From Escherichia phage PE37: 64,000 nt of DNA. Both the position numbers and the translations under genes were made by a program. The notes under the pieces were generated by a model. It saw nothing but the letters and a program-made list of their open reading frames with translations. It did no database searches and had not been told where the DNA came from. The stretch lies in sequence record NC_054929.1, one strand, 5' to 3'. Positions 11,320 to 17,042 of this stretch are shown one piece after another; position 1 is the stretch's first letter, and each line of letters begins with the position of its first letter.

Positions 11320-11508
11320 ATGAAAATTGAAGCACTTAATCAAGAAGGAAATATCTACGTCATTATTAATGGTGATTTTTTCGTCGACATGGATGAAGTT
11401 ACTAGTGAAGAACTTGTAGAACTTCTTAAGAAACGTTATAATATGTGTGATGAAGTTGCAACTCACATGGCGTGTGCAATATTCTCTCTTTCATATGTGG
11501 TGGAATAA
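11320..11508 (+). CDS. hypothetical protein
   Basis: ATG+SD GAGGAG. Confidence 0.55.
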
Positions 11509-11711
11509 TGATTAGTATTGAACAAGCAGATAAAATTAAGGAATTAGTGGCTTCAATTCGTAAAGCAGATGAAGAGCTGATTGACTTTGATTGGTATTCA
11601 TCGGGTATTTCTAATAAAGGCATTAAAGACTTTGAAACTAAAGTGGATAATGCTATAGAAGCGTTAGATATGTTTCTTGATGAAATTATCGATCATAATA
11701 CAAGAGTGTAA
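11508..11711 (+). CDS. hypothetical protein
   Basis: TAATG junction (GGTGGAATAATG). Confidence 0.5.
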   Translation: MISIEQADKIKELVASIRKADEELIDFDWYSSGISNKGIKDFETKVDNAIEALDMFLDEIIDHNTRV

Positions 11712-11713
11712 GT

Positions 11714-11908
11714 ATGCTAACACGCGAACAGTTTGAAAAAATCATTAAATTAGCACGTGATATTGAAATAGATTCATATCAATTAGCAGTTGAGCATTGT
11801 GAAGGATATTCATACGACGGTATAGAAGCAGCTAAAAAGGATTTGGATAAATCTAAAGCTAAGCTAGTTCAATATCTTGAAATGATTAGGTGGAATAATG
11901 AAAACTGA
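11714..11908 (+). CDS. hypothetical protein
   Basis: ATG; 64 aa. Confidence 0.5.
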   Translation: MLTREQFEKIIKLARDIEIDSYQLAVEHCEGYSYDGIEAAKKDLDKSKAKLVQYLEMIRWNNEN

Positions 11909-12071
11909 AAAGCAGATGTTTTTAATGAAACTAATTGAAGAATATGCTAATGCAGTTTCTGACTATGAATGTTCTTCTCGGGAAAGAGGTACAGCTTTCG
12001 CCAAAGAAGAAATGAAAATCATGGTTGATGCTCACACAAAGCTTCAGAATTTTATTGAAAACGTCATTTAA
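11898..12071 (+). CDS. small hypothetical protein (57 aa)
   Basis: same GGTGGAATAATG junction as 11508; not in ORF track. Confidence 0.4.
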   Translation: MKTEKQMFLMKLIEEYANAVSDYECSSRERGTAFAKEEMKIMVDAHTKLQNFIENVI

Positions 12072-12112
12072 TGGTTTACAAGTTGGCAAGGTTATGGTAT
12101 AGTAATCTTGTC
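12065..12112 (+). promoter_or_regulatory. early promoter
   Basis: GTTTAC 12074-12079, 18 bp, TATAGT. Confidence 0.65.
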
Positions 12113-12235
12113 AACTGCCAAGGAGAAGAGAATGAAAGTTTTGTTTGTTATATATGTGATGATTCAATATAATTACCCAATGTTTACTTATAATTTGGTG
12201 AATAACATTATTGATATTATTCAAAGGAGTATGTA

Positions 12236-12421
12236 ATGACAAGTGAGCAGGCTTTTAAATTAAGAGAATTAATTGAGACGTATAGTAGAGCTGTTCATAC
12301 ATCAACAATTATTGATGAATCAGCTTTCTCCGGACATGCTAACAAGATTAAATACAAAACTCTTATGGAAGAAGCTAAAGTAAATCTTGATTGTTATATT
12401 GAAACTTTAATTGGTAAATAA
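12236..12421 (+). CDS. hypothetical protein
   Basis: ATG+SD AGGAG. Confidence 0.55.
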   Translation: MTSEQAFKLRELIETYSRAVHTSTIIDESAFSGHANKIKYKTLMEEAKVNLDCYIETLIGK

Positions 12422-12422
12422 T

Positions 12423-12965
12423 ATGAAAGCTGTAATTGAAACAACTGATTTGTTCGGTAATCTAGTTATCGAAAAACGCGGTAATGTATATGTTCTGACG
12501 CAGGAAGACGATAGTATTATTATTCTTCCTATGGAACTGGCTGCGATTTTATCTTATGCTCCCTCAAGAGTTACCGGTGTAACTAATATTACAGACGACC
12601 TCCAAGTTCGTTTTTATCGTGGCCTTTACGGCGGTAATATTGAAACTGAATTTATGTGTCTTTCTATCAACAATTGGGCAACATTCGTTGCCAAGGTGAA
12701 AGAATTCTTGGAATCTGAAACAGTCGAAACACCCGAAAAGGCTAAACTTCAATGGGCTAAAGATCGCGGTGCTAGCATTATTAATCCAGTAGCTGCAAAT
12801 TATACTACGACTTTGGATGTCAAGACTTCTTATGAAGATGGCGATGTCGTACTTGTTCGCCAAATTGATGATTCTCGAGCACATATTGTCACATTTACCA
12901 AAGATGAAGCTATTGCACTAAAGACTTATCTTGATTCTGTCATTCCAACTATGATTTCAAAGTGA
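12423..12965 (+). CDS. hypothetical protein (paralog pair member 1)
   Basis: in-frame ATG at 12423; C-terminal EAIALKTYLDSVIPTM resembles next gene. Confidence 0.55.
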   Translation: MKAVIETTDLFGNLVIEKRGNVYVLTQEDDSIIILPMELAAILSYAPSRVTGVTNITDDLQVRFYRGLYGGNIETEFMCLSINNWATFVAKVKEFLESETVETPEKAKLQWAKDRGASIINPVAANYTTTLDVKTSYEDGDVVLVRQIDDSRAHIVTFTKDEAIALKTYLDSVIPTMISK

Positions 12966-12971
12966 GGAAAT

Positions 12972-13493
12972 ATGTTTATTTCAAGTGGAAGTGGTTTAAT
13001 TCGTGTTGAATTTAAAAATGACATCTTTCTTATTCAAGGAGATGATATTATTAAAATGAGTTATGACGAAATCAAGAAAATTTGTCATGCTCTTGAAAGT
13101 CATGGAAAAGTGAACGCTGTTATTGATATTGGCGATTTATGGGTGACACTTTATGAAGTATCCGAAGGATTTAACATTGAAGATGAAAATAACATTTTAG
13201 CTATTGATAAAAGAACTGATTTGTTTGATGTATTAAAAGTTTATGAACAGTCAAATGGCGGAAGAAAAGCTGTATTGATTTATCAAAAACCGCATTCATG
13301 TGGAACTGCTTCAATCATTTCAAATATTGAAGGCGAAGTTGATACTTATATGTGTGTTTTAAAAGCTGGTGGTGACCGTCATCCGGATTTTATTTCTATT
13401 CGTCAAAACAATGGAGAAATTTCATTGTCAAAATCAGAAGCTGAAGCTATGATTAAGTATTTAACAACCGTTACGCCTTCAATGAAAGGATAG
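12972..13493 (+). CDS. hypothetical protein (paralog pair member 2)
   Basis: SD GAGGAAA; C-terminal EAEAMIKYLTTVTPSM. Confidence 0.6.
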   Translation: MFISSGSGLIRVEFKNDIFLIQGDDIIKMSYDEIKKICHALESHGKVNAVIDIGDLWVTLYEVSEGFNIEDENNILAIDKRTDLFDVLKVYEQSNGGRKAVLIYQKPHSCGTASIISNIEGEVDTYMCVLKAGGDRHPDFISIRQNNGEISLSKSEAEAMIKYLTTVTPSMKG

Positions 13494-13495
13494 TT

Positions 13496-13957
13496 ATGAT
13501 TATTAATGAAAACTCTTGGCACTATAAATTATTCAAATTGTTTAACGATGAATGGCAACGACCTAAGACACTATGTGCATACTTTTGGTCTATTGTTATC
13601 CCTACATTTTTCGTTTCTTTTTTCGGATGCACTATACTCGCAGGTCTAACTATCATCTGTGCAGAAATCATACAGAAATGGCTTATTTTTGGTAGTTTAT
13701 GGACTCTTATTCCATCAGCATTTATACTTGCTATTTTGCTTGTTTTACTTATTATCGGTTCATTTGTTATTCCTGTACATTTGCATGAAAAATATAAAGA
13801 TTATAAATGGAAAAAGGATTATGCTTTACACGTAGAAAATATTGATAGAGCGTATAAAGGTTTACCTCCTATTCAACCCAAGAAATCTATTATCGTCGAA
13901 TTTTTAAAAGCGCGTAAAGCTAAAGTATGTCCTGTTATTGAATATAAGGCTGAATGA
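13496..13957 (+). CDS. membrane protein
   Basis: ATG; 3 predicted TM segments. Confidence 0.55.
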   Translation: MIINENSWHYKLFKLFNDEWQRPKTLCAYFWSIVIPTFFVSFFGCTILAGLTIICAEIIQKWLIFGSLWTLIPSAFILAILLVLLIIGSFVIPVHLHEKYKDYKWKKDYALHVENIDRAYKGLPPIQPKKSIIVEFLKARKAKVCPVIEYKAE

Positions 13958-14967
13958 TGAAAACAGTAATGAAAAGTTATTTTGGTAGTCATCTTTATGG
14001 AACTTCTACCCCAGAATCTGATGTAGATTTTAAAGAAATCTTTGTTCCTCCTGCTCGCGATATTCTTATTGGAAATGTCAAAGAGCATATGAGTAAAAAC
14101 ACTAACAACACATCATCTAAAAACACTAAAGATGATATTGACCATGAACTATACAGTCTTAAGTATTTCTTTAAATTAGCAGCAGATGGTGAAACTGTAG
14201 CGTTAGATATGCTTCACACTCCGCCTGAACTAGTGGTTAAATCTGATTTGCCTGATGTATGGAAGTTTATTCAAGACAATCGTTCTCGTTTTTATACGAC
14301 TAACATGAAATCCTACTTAGGATATGTTCGCAAGCAAGCTTCTAAATACGGTGTTAAGGGTTCTCGTTTGGCTGCATTACGTGATGTATTGAAAGTAGTT
14401 AATCAAATCCCCGATCAGTGGGTTGATTACCGAGAAGATGGAACACAAGGACAACGTCGCACTAAAGTTGAAGATATTAAGCATCGTCTTCCAGAAAACG
14501 AATTCTGTGAATGGGTGTTCCATAATCATGAGAAAACAGGTCCACAAACGTTCTACACTGTATTGGGTCGTAAATATCAGACAACGCTTTCTCTTATTGA
14601 GCTTAAGCAGTCTTTGAATAAACTTGATGCTGAATATGGTGAACGCGCTCGTAAGGCTGAAGCCAATGAAGGTATTGACTGGAAAGCTCTGAGCCATGCT
14701 TGTCGTGGTGGACTCCAACTATTGGAAATTTACAAAACTGGCGACTTAGTTTATCCACTCCAAGATGCTCCATTTATTCTCGACGTGAAGCTGGGTAAAC
14801 ATCCATTTAAAACTGTTCAAGAGTTTTTGGAAGATGTGGTCGATCAAGTAGAAGCAGCATCTACTGAAGCTTCTAAGAATGGTATGCCTAAAACAGTAGA
14901 TATGAGCTTTTGGAATAATTTCCTCGAACAGGTTTATCTTGAAAACCACCGAAGTTATTATAAATGA
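13954..14967 (+). CDS. nucleotidyltransferase-fold protein (Pol-beta-like NTase)
   Basis: GSHLYGTSTPESDVDF (GS...D-x-D) plus downstream acidic residue; 337 aa. Confidence 0.65.
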   Translation: MMKTVMKSYFGSHLYGTSTPESDVDFKEIFVPPARDILIGNVKEHMSKNTNNTSSKNTKDDIDHELYSLKYFFKLAADGETVALDMLHTPPELVVKSDLPDVWKFIQDNRSRFYTTNMKSYLGYVRKQASKYGVKGSRLAALRDVLKVVNQIPDQWVDYREDGTQGQRRTKVEDIKHRLPENEFCEWVFHNHEKTGPQTFYTVLGRKYQTTLSLIELKQSLNKLDAEYGERARKAEANEGIDWKALSHACRGGLQLLEIYKTGDLVYPLQDAPFILDVKLGKHPFKTVQEFLEDVVDQVEAASTEASKNGMPKTVDMSFWNNFLEQVYLENHRSYYK

Positions 14968-14969
14968 TA

Positions 14970-14995
14970 GGGAGCCTTCGGGCTCCCTTTTTATT
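14970..14995 (+). terminator. rho-independent terminator (UUCG loop)
   Basis: GGGAGCCTTCGGGCTCCC followed by TTTTTATTT. Confidence 0.85.
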
Positions 14996-14999
14996 TCAA

Positions 15000-15055
15000 A
15001 AATTTTTCACAAAGTTGTTTACAAGCATAAAGCTTTATGGTACTATACAACTATC
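15000..15055 (+). promoter_or_regulatory. early promoter
   Basis: GTTTAC 15017-15022, 18 bp, TACTAT 15041-15046. Confidence 0.7.
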
Positions 15056-15080
15056 AACTGATACGGATTTGGAGAATAAA

Positions 15081-16049
15081 ATGAAAACTGTAACTATCAA
15101 TAAGGGTATCTACTTCGGTAAAGAAATCTCTGGAACTTTTGAGCTCTTAGGCGAATGGTTCCCAGATAATGCTCCGGTAGATGCACAAGGAGATGGTAAA
15201 GTTTTTGTTGAAATTGACGGTAAGCGTCGCGGTGTTTGGGTTTACAAATCAGACATTTCATATGATGGTGTAAAAGTTGAAGAAGTTAAAGAATCGTATG
15301 AAGATATGAAAACCCGCATTAATAAAAGATTTAATGTTATGGGAATGATGACGAATGGTATTATTAATGGAAATATTCGTTCATTAATTATCTCTGGCGC
15401 AGCAGGTATTGGTAAAACGTATTCTTTAGATAAAGCTTTAAATAAAGCAAATGATATTGGATACATTGAATATAAAAGCATTAATGGTAAAATCTCTGGT
15501 ATTGGTCTTTATGAGCAGCTTTGGAATAATCGTGAAGAGAATTCTGTCCTTTTGATTGATGATGTGGATGTTTTCTCTGATATGGACATTCTTAATCTTC
15601 TGAAAGCTGCTCTGGACACTGGAGAGACCCGTAAAGTCTGCTGGAGCACCGCATCTTCTTACTTAGAAGAAAAAGGCATTGAGCGTGAGTTTGAATTTAA
15701 AGGAACGATTGTTTTTATCACAAACGTTGACATTGACCGCGAATTAGACCGTGGTACTAAACTTGCTCCACATTTACAAGCATTAGTGTCCCGCTCAGTT
15801 TATTTGGATTTGGGTGTTCACACTAATGAAGAAATTATGGTCAGGGTTGAAGATGTTATTCTTTCAACTGACATGATGCAAAAGCGCGGTCTTTCTGATG
15901 AAGAAACTTATAAAGCATTATCATGGATGAAAGTCAATGTTAATCGTTTACGCAATGTTTCACTGCGTACTGCTCTTTATCTTGCTGACTTTATTATGAC
16001 CGACAAAAACGGTTGGGAAGAAATTGCTACGGTTACTCTTCTGAAATAA
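15081..16049 (+). CDS. AAA+/P-loop ATPase
   Basis: Walker A GAAGIGKT, Walker B VLLIDDVD; start 15081 (track N-terminal extension runs through terminator and promoter). Confidence 0.7.
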   Translation: MKTVTINKGIYFGKEISGTFELLGEWFPDNAPVDAQGDGKVFVEIDGKRRGVWVYKSDISYDGVKVEEVKESYEDMKTRINKRFNVMGMMTNGIINGNIRSLIISGAAGIGKTYSLDKALNKANDIGYIEYKSINGKISGIGLYEQLWNNREENSVLLIDDVDVFSDMDILNLLKAALDTGETRKVCWSTASSYLEEKGIEREFEFKGTIVFITNVDIDRELDRGTKLAPHLQALVSRSVYLDLGVHTNEEIMVRVEDVILSTDMMQKRGLSDEETYKALSWMKVNVNRLRNVSLRTALYLADFIMTDKNGWEEIATVTLLK

Positions 16050-16151
16050 ATTCATAAGAGGACTTCTAAGACAAAAAGGCAGTTCAGAAATAGATTATAT
16101 GGACTGCCATCAAAAAGATGACTAGAATTAAACTGGTAAATGGAGGTAAAG

Positions 16152-16454
16152 ATGTTATACTCAAAAGCTCGTGAAATTTATGAAACTAAAATTAAAGACG
16201 CGGTTCATCAGTTCGCAACGACAATGCGTTGGACAAATGACTGGGAATACTCCAAGAATCATAAGAAGCCCTTGGTGACAAGAAAGGCTCATATGTTAGT
16301 GTTAATAGACCGTGAGCAGATTAAAGCCCGAGAAGCCCTCCAGAATCATAAAAAGGCTGCCTTTGAATGGTTTATGGATAACACTGCTCCTGAGACTAAG
16401 AAAGCAGTGAGCGCTTGGTTCAGTGGAAAAAATTGTGAAAGAAGTTTCTTTTAG
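16152..16454 (+). CDS. hypothetical protein
   Basis: ATG after GGAGG; 100 aa. Confidence 0.55.
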   Translation: MLYSKAREIYETKIKDAVHQFATTMRWTNDWEYSKNHKKPLVTRKAHMLVLIDREQIKAREALQNHKKAAFEWFMDNTAPETKKAVSAWFSGKNCERSFF

Positions 16455-16492
16455 TTGTTTACAAGACTGTTCCTCTGTGGTACTATACAACT
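16445..16492 (+). promoter_or_regulatory. early promoter
   Basis: GTTTAC 16456-16461, 18 bp, TACTAT. Confidence 0.7.
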
Positions 16493-16514
16493 ATCAACTA
16501 CGGAGGAACAGAAA

Positions 16515-17042
16515 ATGAACGCTAAAGATATTTTCAACTTGGTAAACTACAATGATGGTAAATTTAAATCTGAAGCACAAAGTAAGTTCTTTAATGACAT
16601 CTCAATCGGAGGTGAAATCACTGTTGATGGAGGACAAATTTACAAATCCCGTTGGAATTGGATCGTTATTATTGATGAGATTGGTATTGTAGAAATTTAC
16701 AAAAATACGAATAAAAATCGTACATTACACTGGTCTCGTGATACTAACGAACAGTACAAAAAGGATAAAGCATCTAAGTTATCTCGTGTAACTCAAGAAG
16801 ATATTGAGTTCATCAAGAAAGATATTTTGATGTATGATAACTTAATTGCTGAAGAGCAAGCTGTTATTGATAAATTTGATGAGATTAAAGCTTCTCATAA
16901 AATTCCTGATTTTATGAAAGAATCAGTAAATGAACGATACACTCTCATTTCAGAGCGTATTGAAACTTACAAAAAGCAAAGAGCTGAACGCCAGAATACT
17001 CTTCGGAAGTTTGAAGAACGGTTAAAGACGGTACTTGCATAA
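16515..17042 (+). CDS. hypothetical protein
   Basis: ATG+SD GGAGG; 175 aa. Confidence 0.6.
   Translation: MNAKDIFNLVNYNDGKFKSEAQSKFFNDISIGGEITVDGGQIYKSRWNWIVIIDEIGIVEIYKNTNKNRTLHWSRDTNEQYKKDKASKLSRVTQEDIEFIKKDILMYDNLIAEEQAVIDKFDEIKASHKIPDFMKESVNERYTLISERIETYKKQRAERQNTLRKFEERLKTVLA

Follow-up and report, generated by a model that had tools for sequence, protein, structure and literature searches.

Escherichia phage PE37 carries, within a window of 64,000 nucleotides (the whole stretch of DNA analysed, from sequence record NC_054929.1), two neighbouring genes for a 337-residue nucleotidyltransferase (NTase) and a 322-residue AAA+ ATPase. The window is AT-rich (~34% GC), with a near-uniform coding strand. 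Positions 13400-16500 share 99.9% DNA identity with Escherichia phage EO1 and 96-97% with hundreds of Tequatrovirus genomes. By sequence comparison the region is assigned to Tequatrovirus, and the two open reading frames (ORFs) are assigned as the T4 genes nrdC.11 and nrdC.10. The original prediction, made from the letters of the window, had read here an NTase-fold protein followed by an AAA+ ATPase. Both ORFs lie where it placed them, and its suggestion that they might be nrdC.10 and nrdC.11 of T4 was correct: one product is 99% identical to T4 NrdC.10 and the other maps to NP_049709. In relatives and in the T4 reference record nrdC.11 is annotated as 'nucleotidyltransferase' and nrdC.10 as 'hypothetical protein'. 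Because the T4 products are uncharacterised, the proviso that the proteins might map to characterised T4 products with unrelated functions does not come into play. The identity of the genes and their domain families were already known. The domains were noted in 2006, when the product of nrdC.11 was placed among the nucleotidyltransferases of COG3541 and that of nrdC.10 among the AAA ATPases (Nolan et al. 2006, PMC1524935), and the RlaP assignment of the former appears in the literature of 2016-2025.

The principal features of the locus are the following, all on the plus strand:

13954-14967: nrdC.11 orthologue, encoding a 337-residue long-form RlaP (PF10127) nucleotidyltransferase; maps to T4 nrdC.11, NP_049709
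13984-14028: predicted NTase catalytic motif G11-S12-x10-D23-x-D25, within GSHLYGTSTPESDVDF; G11 and S12 invariant, D23 and D25 99% conserved
14134-14142: D61-x-D63, candidate third catalytic carboxylate; 95% and 98% conserved
14677-14706: motif D242-W-K244-x3-H248-x2-R251 of the C-terminal helical domain; H248 and R251 invariant, D242, W243 and K244 at least 90% conserved
14969-14996: predicted intrinsic terminator after nrdC.11 (8-bp GC-rich stem, UUCG loop, T-run), from a terminator scan
15018-15046: predicted early-type sigma-70 promoter for nrdC.10, TTTACA-17-TACTAT with extended TG, from its match to consensus
15081-16049: nrdC.10 orthologue, encoding a 322-residue AAA+ ATPase whose first ~62 residues (1-62) form a beta-rich domain; 99% identity to T4 NrdC.10
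15396-15419: Walker A, GAAGIGKT, residues 106-113; G106, A107, G109, G111 and K112 invariant in 57 homologues, T113 at least 90% conserved
15546-15569: Walker B, VLLIDDVD, residues 156-163; D160 and D161 invariant in 57 homologues, D163 at least 90% conserved
15723-15797: sensor-1 N215 to S237-R238-S239, a putative arginine finger; all four residues invariant in 57 homologues
13496-13957: gene for a 153-residue predicted membrane protein, matching PHROG 944 'membrane protein'

The terminator and promoter that the original prediction placed between the two ORFs were both recovered by scanning. The terminator hairpin (14969-14988) has a fold energy of -18.4 kcal/mol, with z = -4.4 against shuffled sequences, and the annotation of phage NR1 places a terminator at the same site after nrdC.11. 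The promoter block, which runs from -35 to +20 over about 40-45 nt, recurs almost exactly upstream of nrdC.8, at 16458-16486 (within positions 14996-15083 and 16436-16517). It reads GTTGTTTACAAG...TGGTACTATACAACTATCAACT, takes in the -35 and extended -10 elements together with the first part of the leader, and appears to be a repeated early-promoter cassette shared by nrdC.10 and nrdC.8. The stop codon of the membrane-protein gene overlaps the start of nrdC.11 by 4 nt (ATGA). Because of this overlap, the terminator and the promoter, nrdC.11 looks transcriptionally tied to the genes upstream of it rather than to nrdC.10.

On the T4 map the place of the membrane-protein gene is presumably occupied by the homing-endonuclease gene mobD, which would make this position a variable insertion site. 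Farther upstream, the window holds four tandem small DUF7438 paralogues resembling MobD.2-MobD.5 (57-79 residues; 11472-12421), followed by two tandem paralogues of a y05I-like putative transcription factor (184 and 173 residues; 12411-13493). The segment from nrdC.11 to mobD.3 was deleted from T4 in a genome-reduction study (PMC9825161). In a 159.7-kb record labelled 'T4' (OL964745.1) nrdC.11 is reduced to its final 39 codons, which is consistent with an engineered, genome-reduced T4 lacking nrdC.11-mobD.3. Because of this deletion and the 39-codon remnant, nrdC.11 is considered dispensable in the laboratory.

NrdC.11 as a long form of RlaP

The call of an NTase fold for the 337-residue ORF stands. 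The Pfam model RlaP (PF10127, 'RNA repair pathway DNA polymerase beta family') matches NrdC.11 at 43.8 bits, above its cut-off of 23 (E = 3.3e-11), and PHROG 388, 'nucleotidyltransferase', matches at 3.5e-138. An exhaustive search for homologues returned 3517 clusters at 50% identity, including 830 with E <= 1e-30. All 120 of the 120 close homologues among the matches listed carry PF10127. Over the NTase domain, the N-terminal 130 residues align with canonical short RlaPs at an hhalign probability of 93% (E = 2.8e-7).

The catalytic signature had been given as GS-x9-DxD; the motif is present, with a spacing of ten residues rather than nine, and in this form still fits the Pol-beta consensus hG[GS]x9-13DxD. 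Profile-profile alignment sets it against ESGSRAWG...DSDYD of canonical RlaP. The acidic residue predicted downstream of the motif has three counterparts in the protein, D61, D63 and D85. Across 120-146 representatives (34-57% identity), conservation is 100% for G11 and S12, 99% for D23 and D25, 95% for D61, 98% for D63 and 96% for D85. The motif, conserved across so many representatives, is therefore under strong constraint and is not a chance occurrence; the concern that its residues might vary among homologues is answered by conservation of 95-100%. Residues invariant in the alignment of 120 representatives are G11, S12, Y132, R231, H248, R251 and P268, and the C-terminal DWKAxSHAxR block is at least 90% conserved. 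The D61-x-D63 stretch faces the LDINGWD segment of canonical RlaP, the site of invariant D95 and D100, in the profile-profile alignment, and may supply a metal ligand.

An AlphaFold2 model of NrdC.11 is confident, with a predicted local distance difference test score (pLDDT) of 94.9. It begins with an NTase domain, continues through a helical segment and a beta insert at 155-209, and ends in a C-terminal domain made of helices. In the PfRlaP crystal structure, an NTase domain and a helical domain are joined by a C-terminal helix that folds back against the NTase domain. With the RlaPs of Pseudomonas fluorescens and Pseudomonas aeruginosa (PF10127; COG3541) NrdC.11 shares the N-terminal Pol-beta NTase domain, with GS...DxD and a third Asp, and, as modelled, the layout in which a helical domain comes after the NTase domain; its clade is likewise linked to genes for RNA ligase and RNA repair. 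It differs from them in length (337 residues, whereas canonical members have about 250-290), in the extra beta-strand insert at 155-209, and in its invariant C-terminal motifs, YGxRA and DWKAxSHAxR, which are distinct from canonical RlaP and do not align significantly with it. On these sequence comparisons NrdC.11 is classified as a divergent long-form member of the RlaP family, not as a CD-NTase.

Membership in other NTase families was considered and rejected. NrdC.11 matches CD-NTase/SMODS neither by sequence nor by fold. The NCBIfam model for the MntA antitoxin of HEPN-MNT systems reaches 13.2 bits where its cut-off is 60, and Pfam gives no CCA-adding/PolyA_pol (PF01743) match at E <= 0.1. 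The PADLOC defence models return no match to NrdC.11, and searches of the Protein Data Bank (PDB) with single sequences and with profiles returned nothing for either NrdC.11 or NrdC.10. The nearest solved folds, in a PDB set without the PfRlaP structure, are HalB of the Hailong system and kanamycin nucleotidyltransferase. They resemble NrdC.11 at 9-16% identity, with Foldseek E values no better than about 0.01 and template-modelling scores of 0.25-0.43; a family-level sequence match is absent, and the gene contexts differ.

These results bear on the original prediction's framing of the protein within nucleotide second-messenger immunity. That framing is not borne out, as CD-NTase/SMODS, MNT, CCA-adding and PADLOC matches are all lacking and the family is the RNA-repair-linked RlaP. 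Genes that counter host defences are expected in the variable, dispensable early regions of phage genomes, and nrdC.11 lies in such a region, a location that would suit an enzyme making, mimicking or depleting a nucleotide immune signal against CBASS, Thoeris, Pycsar or Hailong. We consider this highly improbable: there is no Pfam SMODS/CD-NTase or PADLOC match, the similarity to HalB does not extend beyond the minimal core common to NTases (Foldseek E >= 0.01, template-modelling score about 0.25-0.4), and the family and its gene neighbourhoods, described below, point to RNA repair. An equally long shot is that NrdC.11, whose nearest solved fold is HalB, is no repair enzyme but a primer-independent oligonucleotide synthase whose product, or a decoy, would silence an abortive-infection sensor of the host, perhaps with NrdC.10 acting along with it in T-even phages. 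Counter-defence through RNA repair, and not through nucleotide signalling, is plausible.

NrdC.10 and its relationship to NrdC.11

The start of nrdC.10 is the ATG at 15081, preceded by GGAG at 15071-15074, and all homologues begin there; a 361-residue ORF that can be read from 14964 is an artefact. The P-loop ATPase recognised from GAAGIGKT and VLLIDDVD is confirmed, as both motifs are present and the top 50 of 147 Foldseek matches in the PDB with E <= 1e-3 are all AAA+ proteins. Many AAA+ clades match at E ~1e-5 with none singled out (dynein AAA modules, ClpA, RuvB, ORC/Cdc6, Hda, RFC and NtrC/PspF). The roles of N215 and of S237-R238-S239 are inferred from their positions in the modelled AAA+ fold; R291 and R296, arginines of the lid domain, are also invariant in the 57 homologues. 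The AlphaFold2 model (pLDDT 90.6) places an insertion of ~30 residues between the helix at 168-178 and the strand at 209-214, before the sensor-1 strand.

The closest comparisons are with AAA+ proteins carrying a pre-sensor-1 insertion (RuvB, NtrC/PspF and dynein AAA modules) and with the clamp-loader/initiator group (RFC, Hda and Cdc6). NrdC.10 shares with these groups Walker A and Walker B, the sensor-1 Asn, the SRS arginine, the lid arginines, the alpha/beta-plus-lid fold (Foldseek probability 1.0) and the insertion. It differs from them in its unique N-terminal beta domain, in belonging to a phage-restricted family (PHROG 1250), and in that no Pfam AAA model reaches its cut-off. None of the named AAA+ families compared (AAA_14, AAA_22, nSTAND3, clamp loader and Hda) attains its curated cut-off: every Pfam match is below threshold, the NCBIfam Hda model scores 14.7 against a cut-off of 194.8, and a PDB profile search gives no match at E < 0.08. 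PHROG 1250, 'unknown function', matches at 2.5e-166, and the PHROG clamp-loader profile at E = 1e-4. Homologues occur in 1310 phage records. NrdC.10, in which the ATP site is intact and the N-terminal beta domain small, is probably an oligomeric, ATP-driven remodeller. A conserved partner was sought among its neighbours: NrdC.9 is present in 12 of 42 loci with NrdC.10, and NrdC.8 is similarly patchy.

The original prediction considered the pairing of an NTase with an ATPase unusual for phage housekeeping genes. Gene order was compared in a sample of 80 viral and 80 bacterial or metagenome-assembled genome (MAG) loci encoding NrdC.11 relatives. The two genes are adjacent, in the same order and on the same strand, with a gap of 112-2290 bp, in 36 of the 80 viral loci, all of them from close T4 relatives with NrdC.11 at 51% identity or above. 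The gap is variable and other ORFs sit in it. No NrdC.10 lies within 10 kb in several close relatives or in any viral locus whose NrdC.11 falls below 50% identity, and no homologue of NrdC.10 was found in the 80 bacterial/MAG loci. In Aeromonas phage 25 the two homologues are ~100 kb apart, with NrdC.10 near motA/asiA. Homologues of NrdC.10 without an NTase neighbour occur in the replication module of Vibrio phage D533 and among hypothetical genes in PA5oct and 121Q.

This distribution speaks against a two-component module in which the AAA+ protein would deliver or remodel the substrate of the NTase. Such a module would account for the shared order and strand in the 36 viral loci and for the position of both genes in the early region. 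It is nevertheless very unlikely in view of the strong terminator and separate promoter between the genes, the variable gap with its inserted ORFs, the lack of a nearby nrdC.10 in several close relatives and in all relatives below 50% identity, the ~100-kb separation in Aeromonas phage 25, and the solitary NrdC.10 of D533, PA5oct and 121Q, with none in the 80 bacterial/MAG loci. The module was accordingly rejected, there being neither shared transcription signals nor adjacency in distant relatives, and an unusual pairing as a functional unit is not supported. With a terminator and a promoter between the genes, adjacency limited to loci at or above 51% identity, NrdC.10 on its own in other phages and none in the bacterial loci sampled, NrdC.11 and NrdC.10 are read as neighbours by local synteny, not as partners.

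Gene neighbourhoods of NrdC.11 relatives

The gene neighbourhoods of NrdC.11 relatives contain RNA repair genes in several arrangements. In the viral contig L078 (9962-13179) the NTase gene is followed by an RNA ligase gene (PF09414) and then by one for a Pnkp of T4 type, with kinase and HAD phosphatase, all co-directional and with ends that abut or overlap. In a second viral contig, L096 (62-3803), the co-directional order is NTase, an NT5C-like gene, Pnkp, a 143-residue ORF and an Rnl1-type ligase. Both compact cassettes look like three-step RNA repair operons. In other viral loci RtcB lies 3.5-4.5 kb from the NTase (L084 and L076) or Rnl1-type ligases lie 3.5-6.5 kb from it (L069 and L073). 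RtcB, Pnkp-ligase, Hen1 or Ro60 is found no more than 8 kb from the NTase in 16 of the 80 bacterial/MAG loci, and repair genes directly abut it in six bacterial/MAG loci (L146, L172, L167, L102, L138 and L166). EO1, the nearest relative of the phage, encodes both an RNA ligase and a polynucleotide kinase.

Bacterial and MAG loci also show a tandem arrangement. In 17 of them the long NrdC.11-like NTase is paired with a second, shorter gene of the RlaP cluster (236-290 residues), which in 15 cases comes right after it in the same orientation; the long form often co-occurs with a short RlaP rather than replacing it. The tandem loci are L097, L100, L110, L111, L116, L122, L126, L137, L146, L148, L152, L153, L158, L163, L165, L167 and L170. 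For the short partners of L110 and L137, the two that were scanned, the match runs over the whole of PF10127, with E = 1e-73 to 1e-80.

Other neighbours vary. No universally conserved neighbour of NrdC.11 was found in distant phages. NAMPT (cluster c27) lies within a few kilobases of NrdC.11 homologues in 10 loci (for example L044, L058-L061, L066 and L070), accompanied in some loci by phosphoribosyl pyrophosphate synthetase and NMNAT-Nudix, and NAD-salvage genes occur near the homologue in L076 (11742-14153). Their presence probably reflects synteny within variable regions. A metagenomic, phage-like contig (L087:6001-7978 and L088:556-2533) has, directly after the RlaP homologue, a 334-residue AcrVA2-like (PF26125) gene, and a CCA-adding enzyme (PolyA_pol plus HD) is encoded ~4.7 kb downstream.

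A candidate step in T4 RNA repair

Recent work on other family members provides a biochemical reference. Two Pseudomonas RlaPs add one or two nucleoside monophosphates to RNA 3'-OH ends, prefer Mn2+, do not use DNA as a substrate, and partly restore aminoacylation of tRNA that is short of one nucleotide (Carruthers, Fatma and Huang, December 2025, bioRxiv 10.64898/2025.12.29.696909). In the same study RNAs of rRNA and tRNA size were labelled by Pseudomonas RlaP, which showed little specificity among nucleoside triphosphates (NTPs), and T4 NrdC.11 was listed as a family member of unknown function that falls in a cluster of its own (cluster 5) in the similarity network. RlaP is described as the most prevalent NTase in jumbo phages, where it follows the distribution of RNA ligases; its predicted function is to replace the nucleotides that nucleases such as RloC remove (Iyer et al. 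2021, PMC7824862). RloC excises the wobble nucleotide and was itself predicted to defeat phage repair (Davidov and Kaufmann 2008, PMC2610378).

Family membership and gene context make the addition of nucleotides to 3'-OH ends of RNA the most likely activity of NrdC.11. Because its relatives adjoin RNA ligase and Pnkp, RtcB, Pnkp/Hen1 or Ro60, the restoration of tRNA nucleotides would be its most likely role. In the proposed scheme, Pnkp (PseT) would convert the 2',3'-cyclic phosphate of a cleaved tRNA into a 3'-OH and phosphorylate the 5' end. NrdC.11, acting like the Pseudomonas RlaP through its GS...DxD...D metal site, would then add one or two nucleotides, template-free, to the 3'-OH of the broken RNA, and RNA ligase 1 (Rnl1) would seal the strand once the excised nucleotide had been replaced. 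In this way tRNAs trimmed by nucleotide-excising anticodon nucleases such as RloC, a lesion beyond ligation alone, could be rebuilt. The known pathway of T4 Pnkp/PseT and RNA ligase 1, which counters the anticodon nuclease PrrC, offers a natural setting: EO1, of the same lineage, has both genes, and in other viruses NrdC.11 relatives share operons with a Pnkp of T4 type and a ligase of the Rnl1 or Rnl2 type. The chemistry would also fit, in that Pnkp leaves a 3'-OH, RlaP needs one, and Rnl1 joins a 3'-OH to a 5'-phosphate. NrdC.11 is not, however, among the known members of the pathway. The RNA substrate, the step in the T4 pathway and RloC as the target are inferred by analogy.

Overall we favour, with moderate confidence, the reading in which NrdC.11 is an RlaP-type RNA-repair NTase and NrdC.10 a separate AAA+ ATPase, both being non-essential early genes of T4. 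Several observations weigh against it. Most loci of NrdC.11 homologues are without a recognisable RNA repair neighbour. In T4-like genomes nrdC.11 lies about 80-85 kb from rnlA and pseT, and owing to this distance it is not in an operon with them. The match to PF10127 is limited to the N-terminal half of the protein, ~130 residues (model positions 23-142 of 249). The C-terminal domain, compared with canonical RlaP by itself, gives a weak match (E = 0.15) in which the K-x3-[HY]-x2-R register is kept; its pattern resembles the K-x3-Y-x2-R of short RlaPs at this non-significant level. Since this domain, with its beta insert, does not align significantly with RlaP, the substrate or product of NrdC.11 could differ. 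The occurrence of long and short RlaP in tandem in 17 bacterial loci suggests that the two differ in activity and are non-redundant. For NrdC.10, the evidence amounts to a generic AAA+ assignment.

The same observations bear on the chief alternative, that NrdC.11 modifies RNA or other nucleic-acid ends outside tRNA repair, by tailing transcripts of host or phage and so changing their stability, by repairing 3' CCA ends of tRNA or by nucleotidylating another substrate, and that its neighbourhoods reflect a shared toolbox of 'RNA-end biochemistry'. The divergent C-terminal domain and beta insert, unmatched to canonical RlaP, would agree with such a function, as would the distinct activities implied by the tandem genes, the CCA-adding enzyme and AcrVA2-like gene near one homologue, and the broad labelling of rRNA- and tRNA-sized RNA by Pseudomonas RlaP. 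The tightest operons, however, join the NTase with RNA ligase and Pnkp, with Pnkp/Hen1 or with RtcB, and there is no significant Pfam match to PolyA_pol or CCA-adding enzymes; we regard this alternative as unlikely, if less so than those considered above. A milder version of the oligonucleotide-synthase reading is that the long-form RlaP reaction is distinct from that of short RlaP and that T4 may use it against nucleotide-excising anticodon nucleases such as RloC.

What remains of interest at the locus is the role of NrdC.11 in T4 RNA repair, and NrdC.10 as an orphan ATPase. The idea that T4 rebuilds tRNAs is motivated by the operons of NTase, RNA ligase and Pnkp, by the NTases that abut Pnkp/Hen1 or RtcB, and by the tandem RlaPs. 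If it is true, the classic two-enzyme RNA repair of T4 would comprise three steps, and the proposal that RloC inflicts damage beyond repair would not hold.

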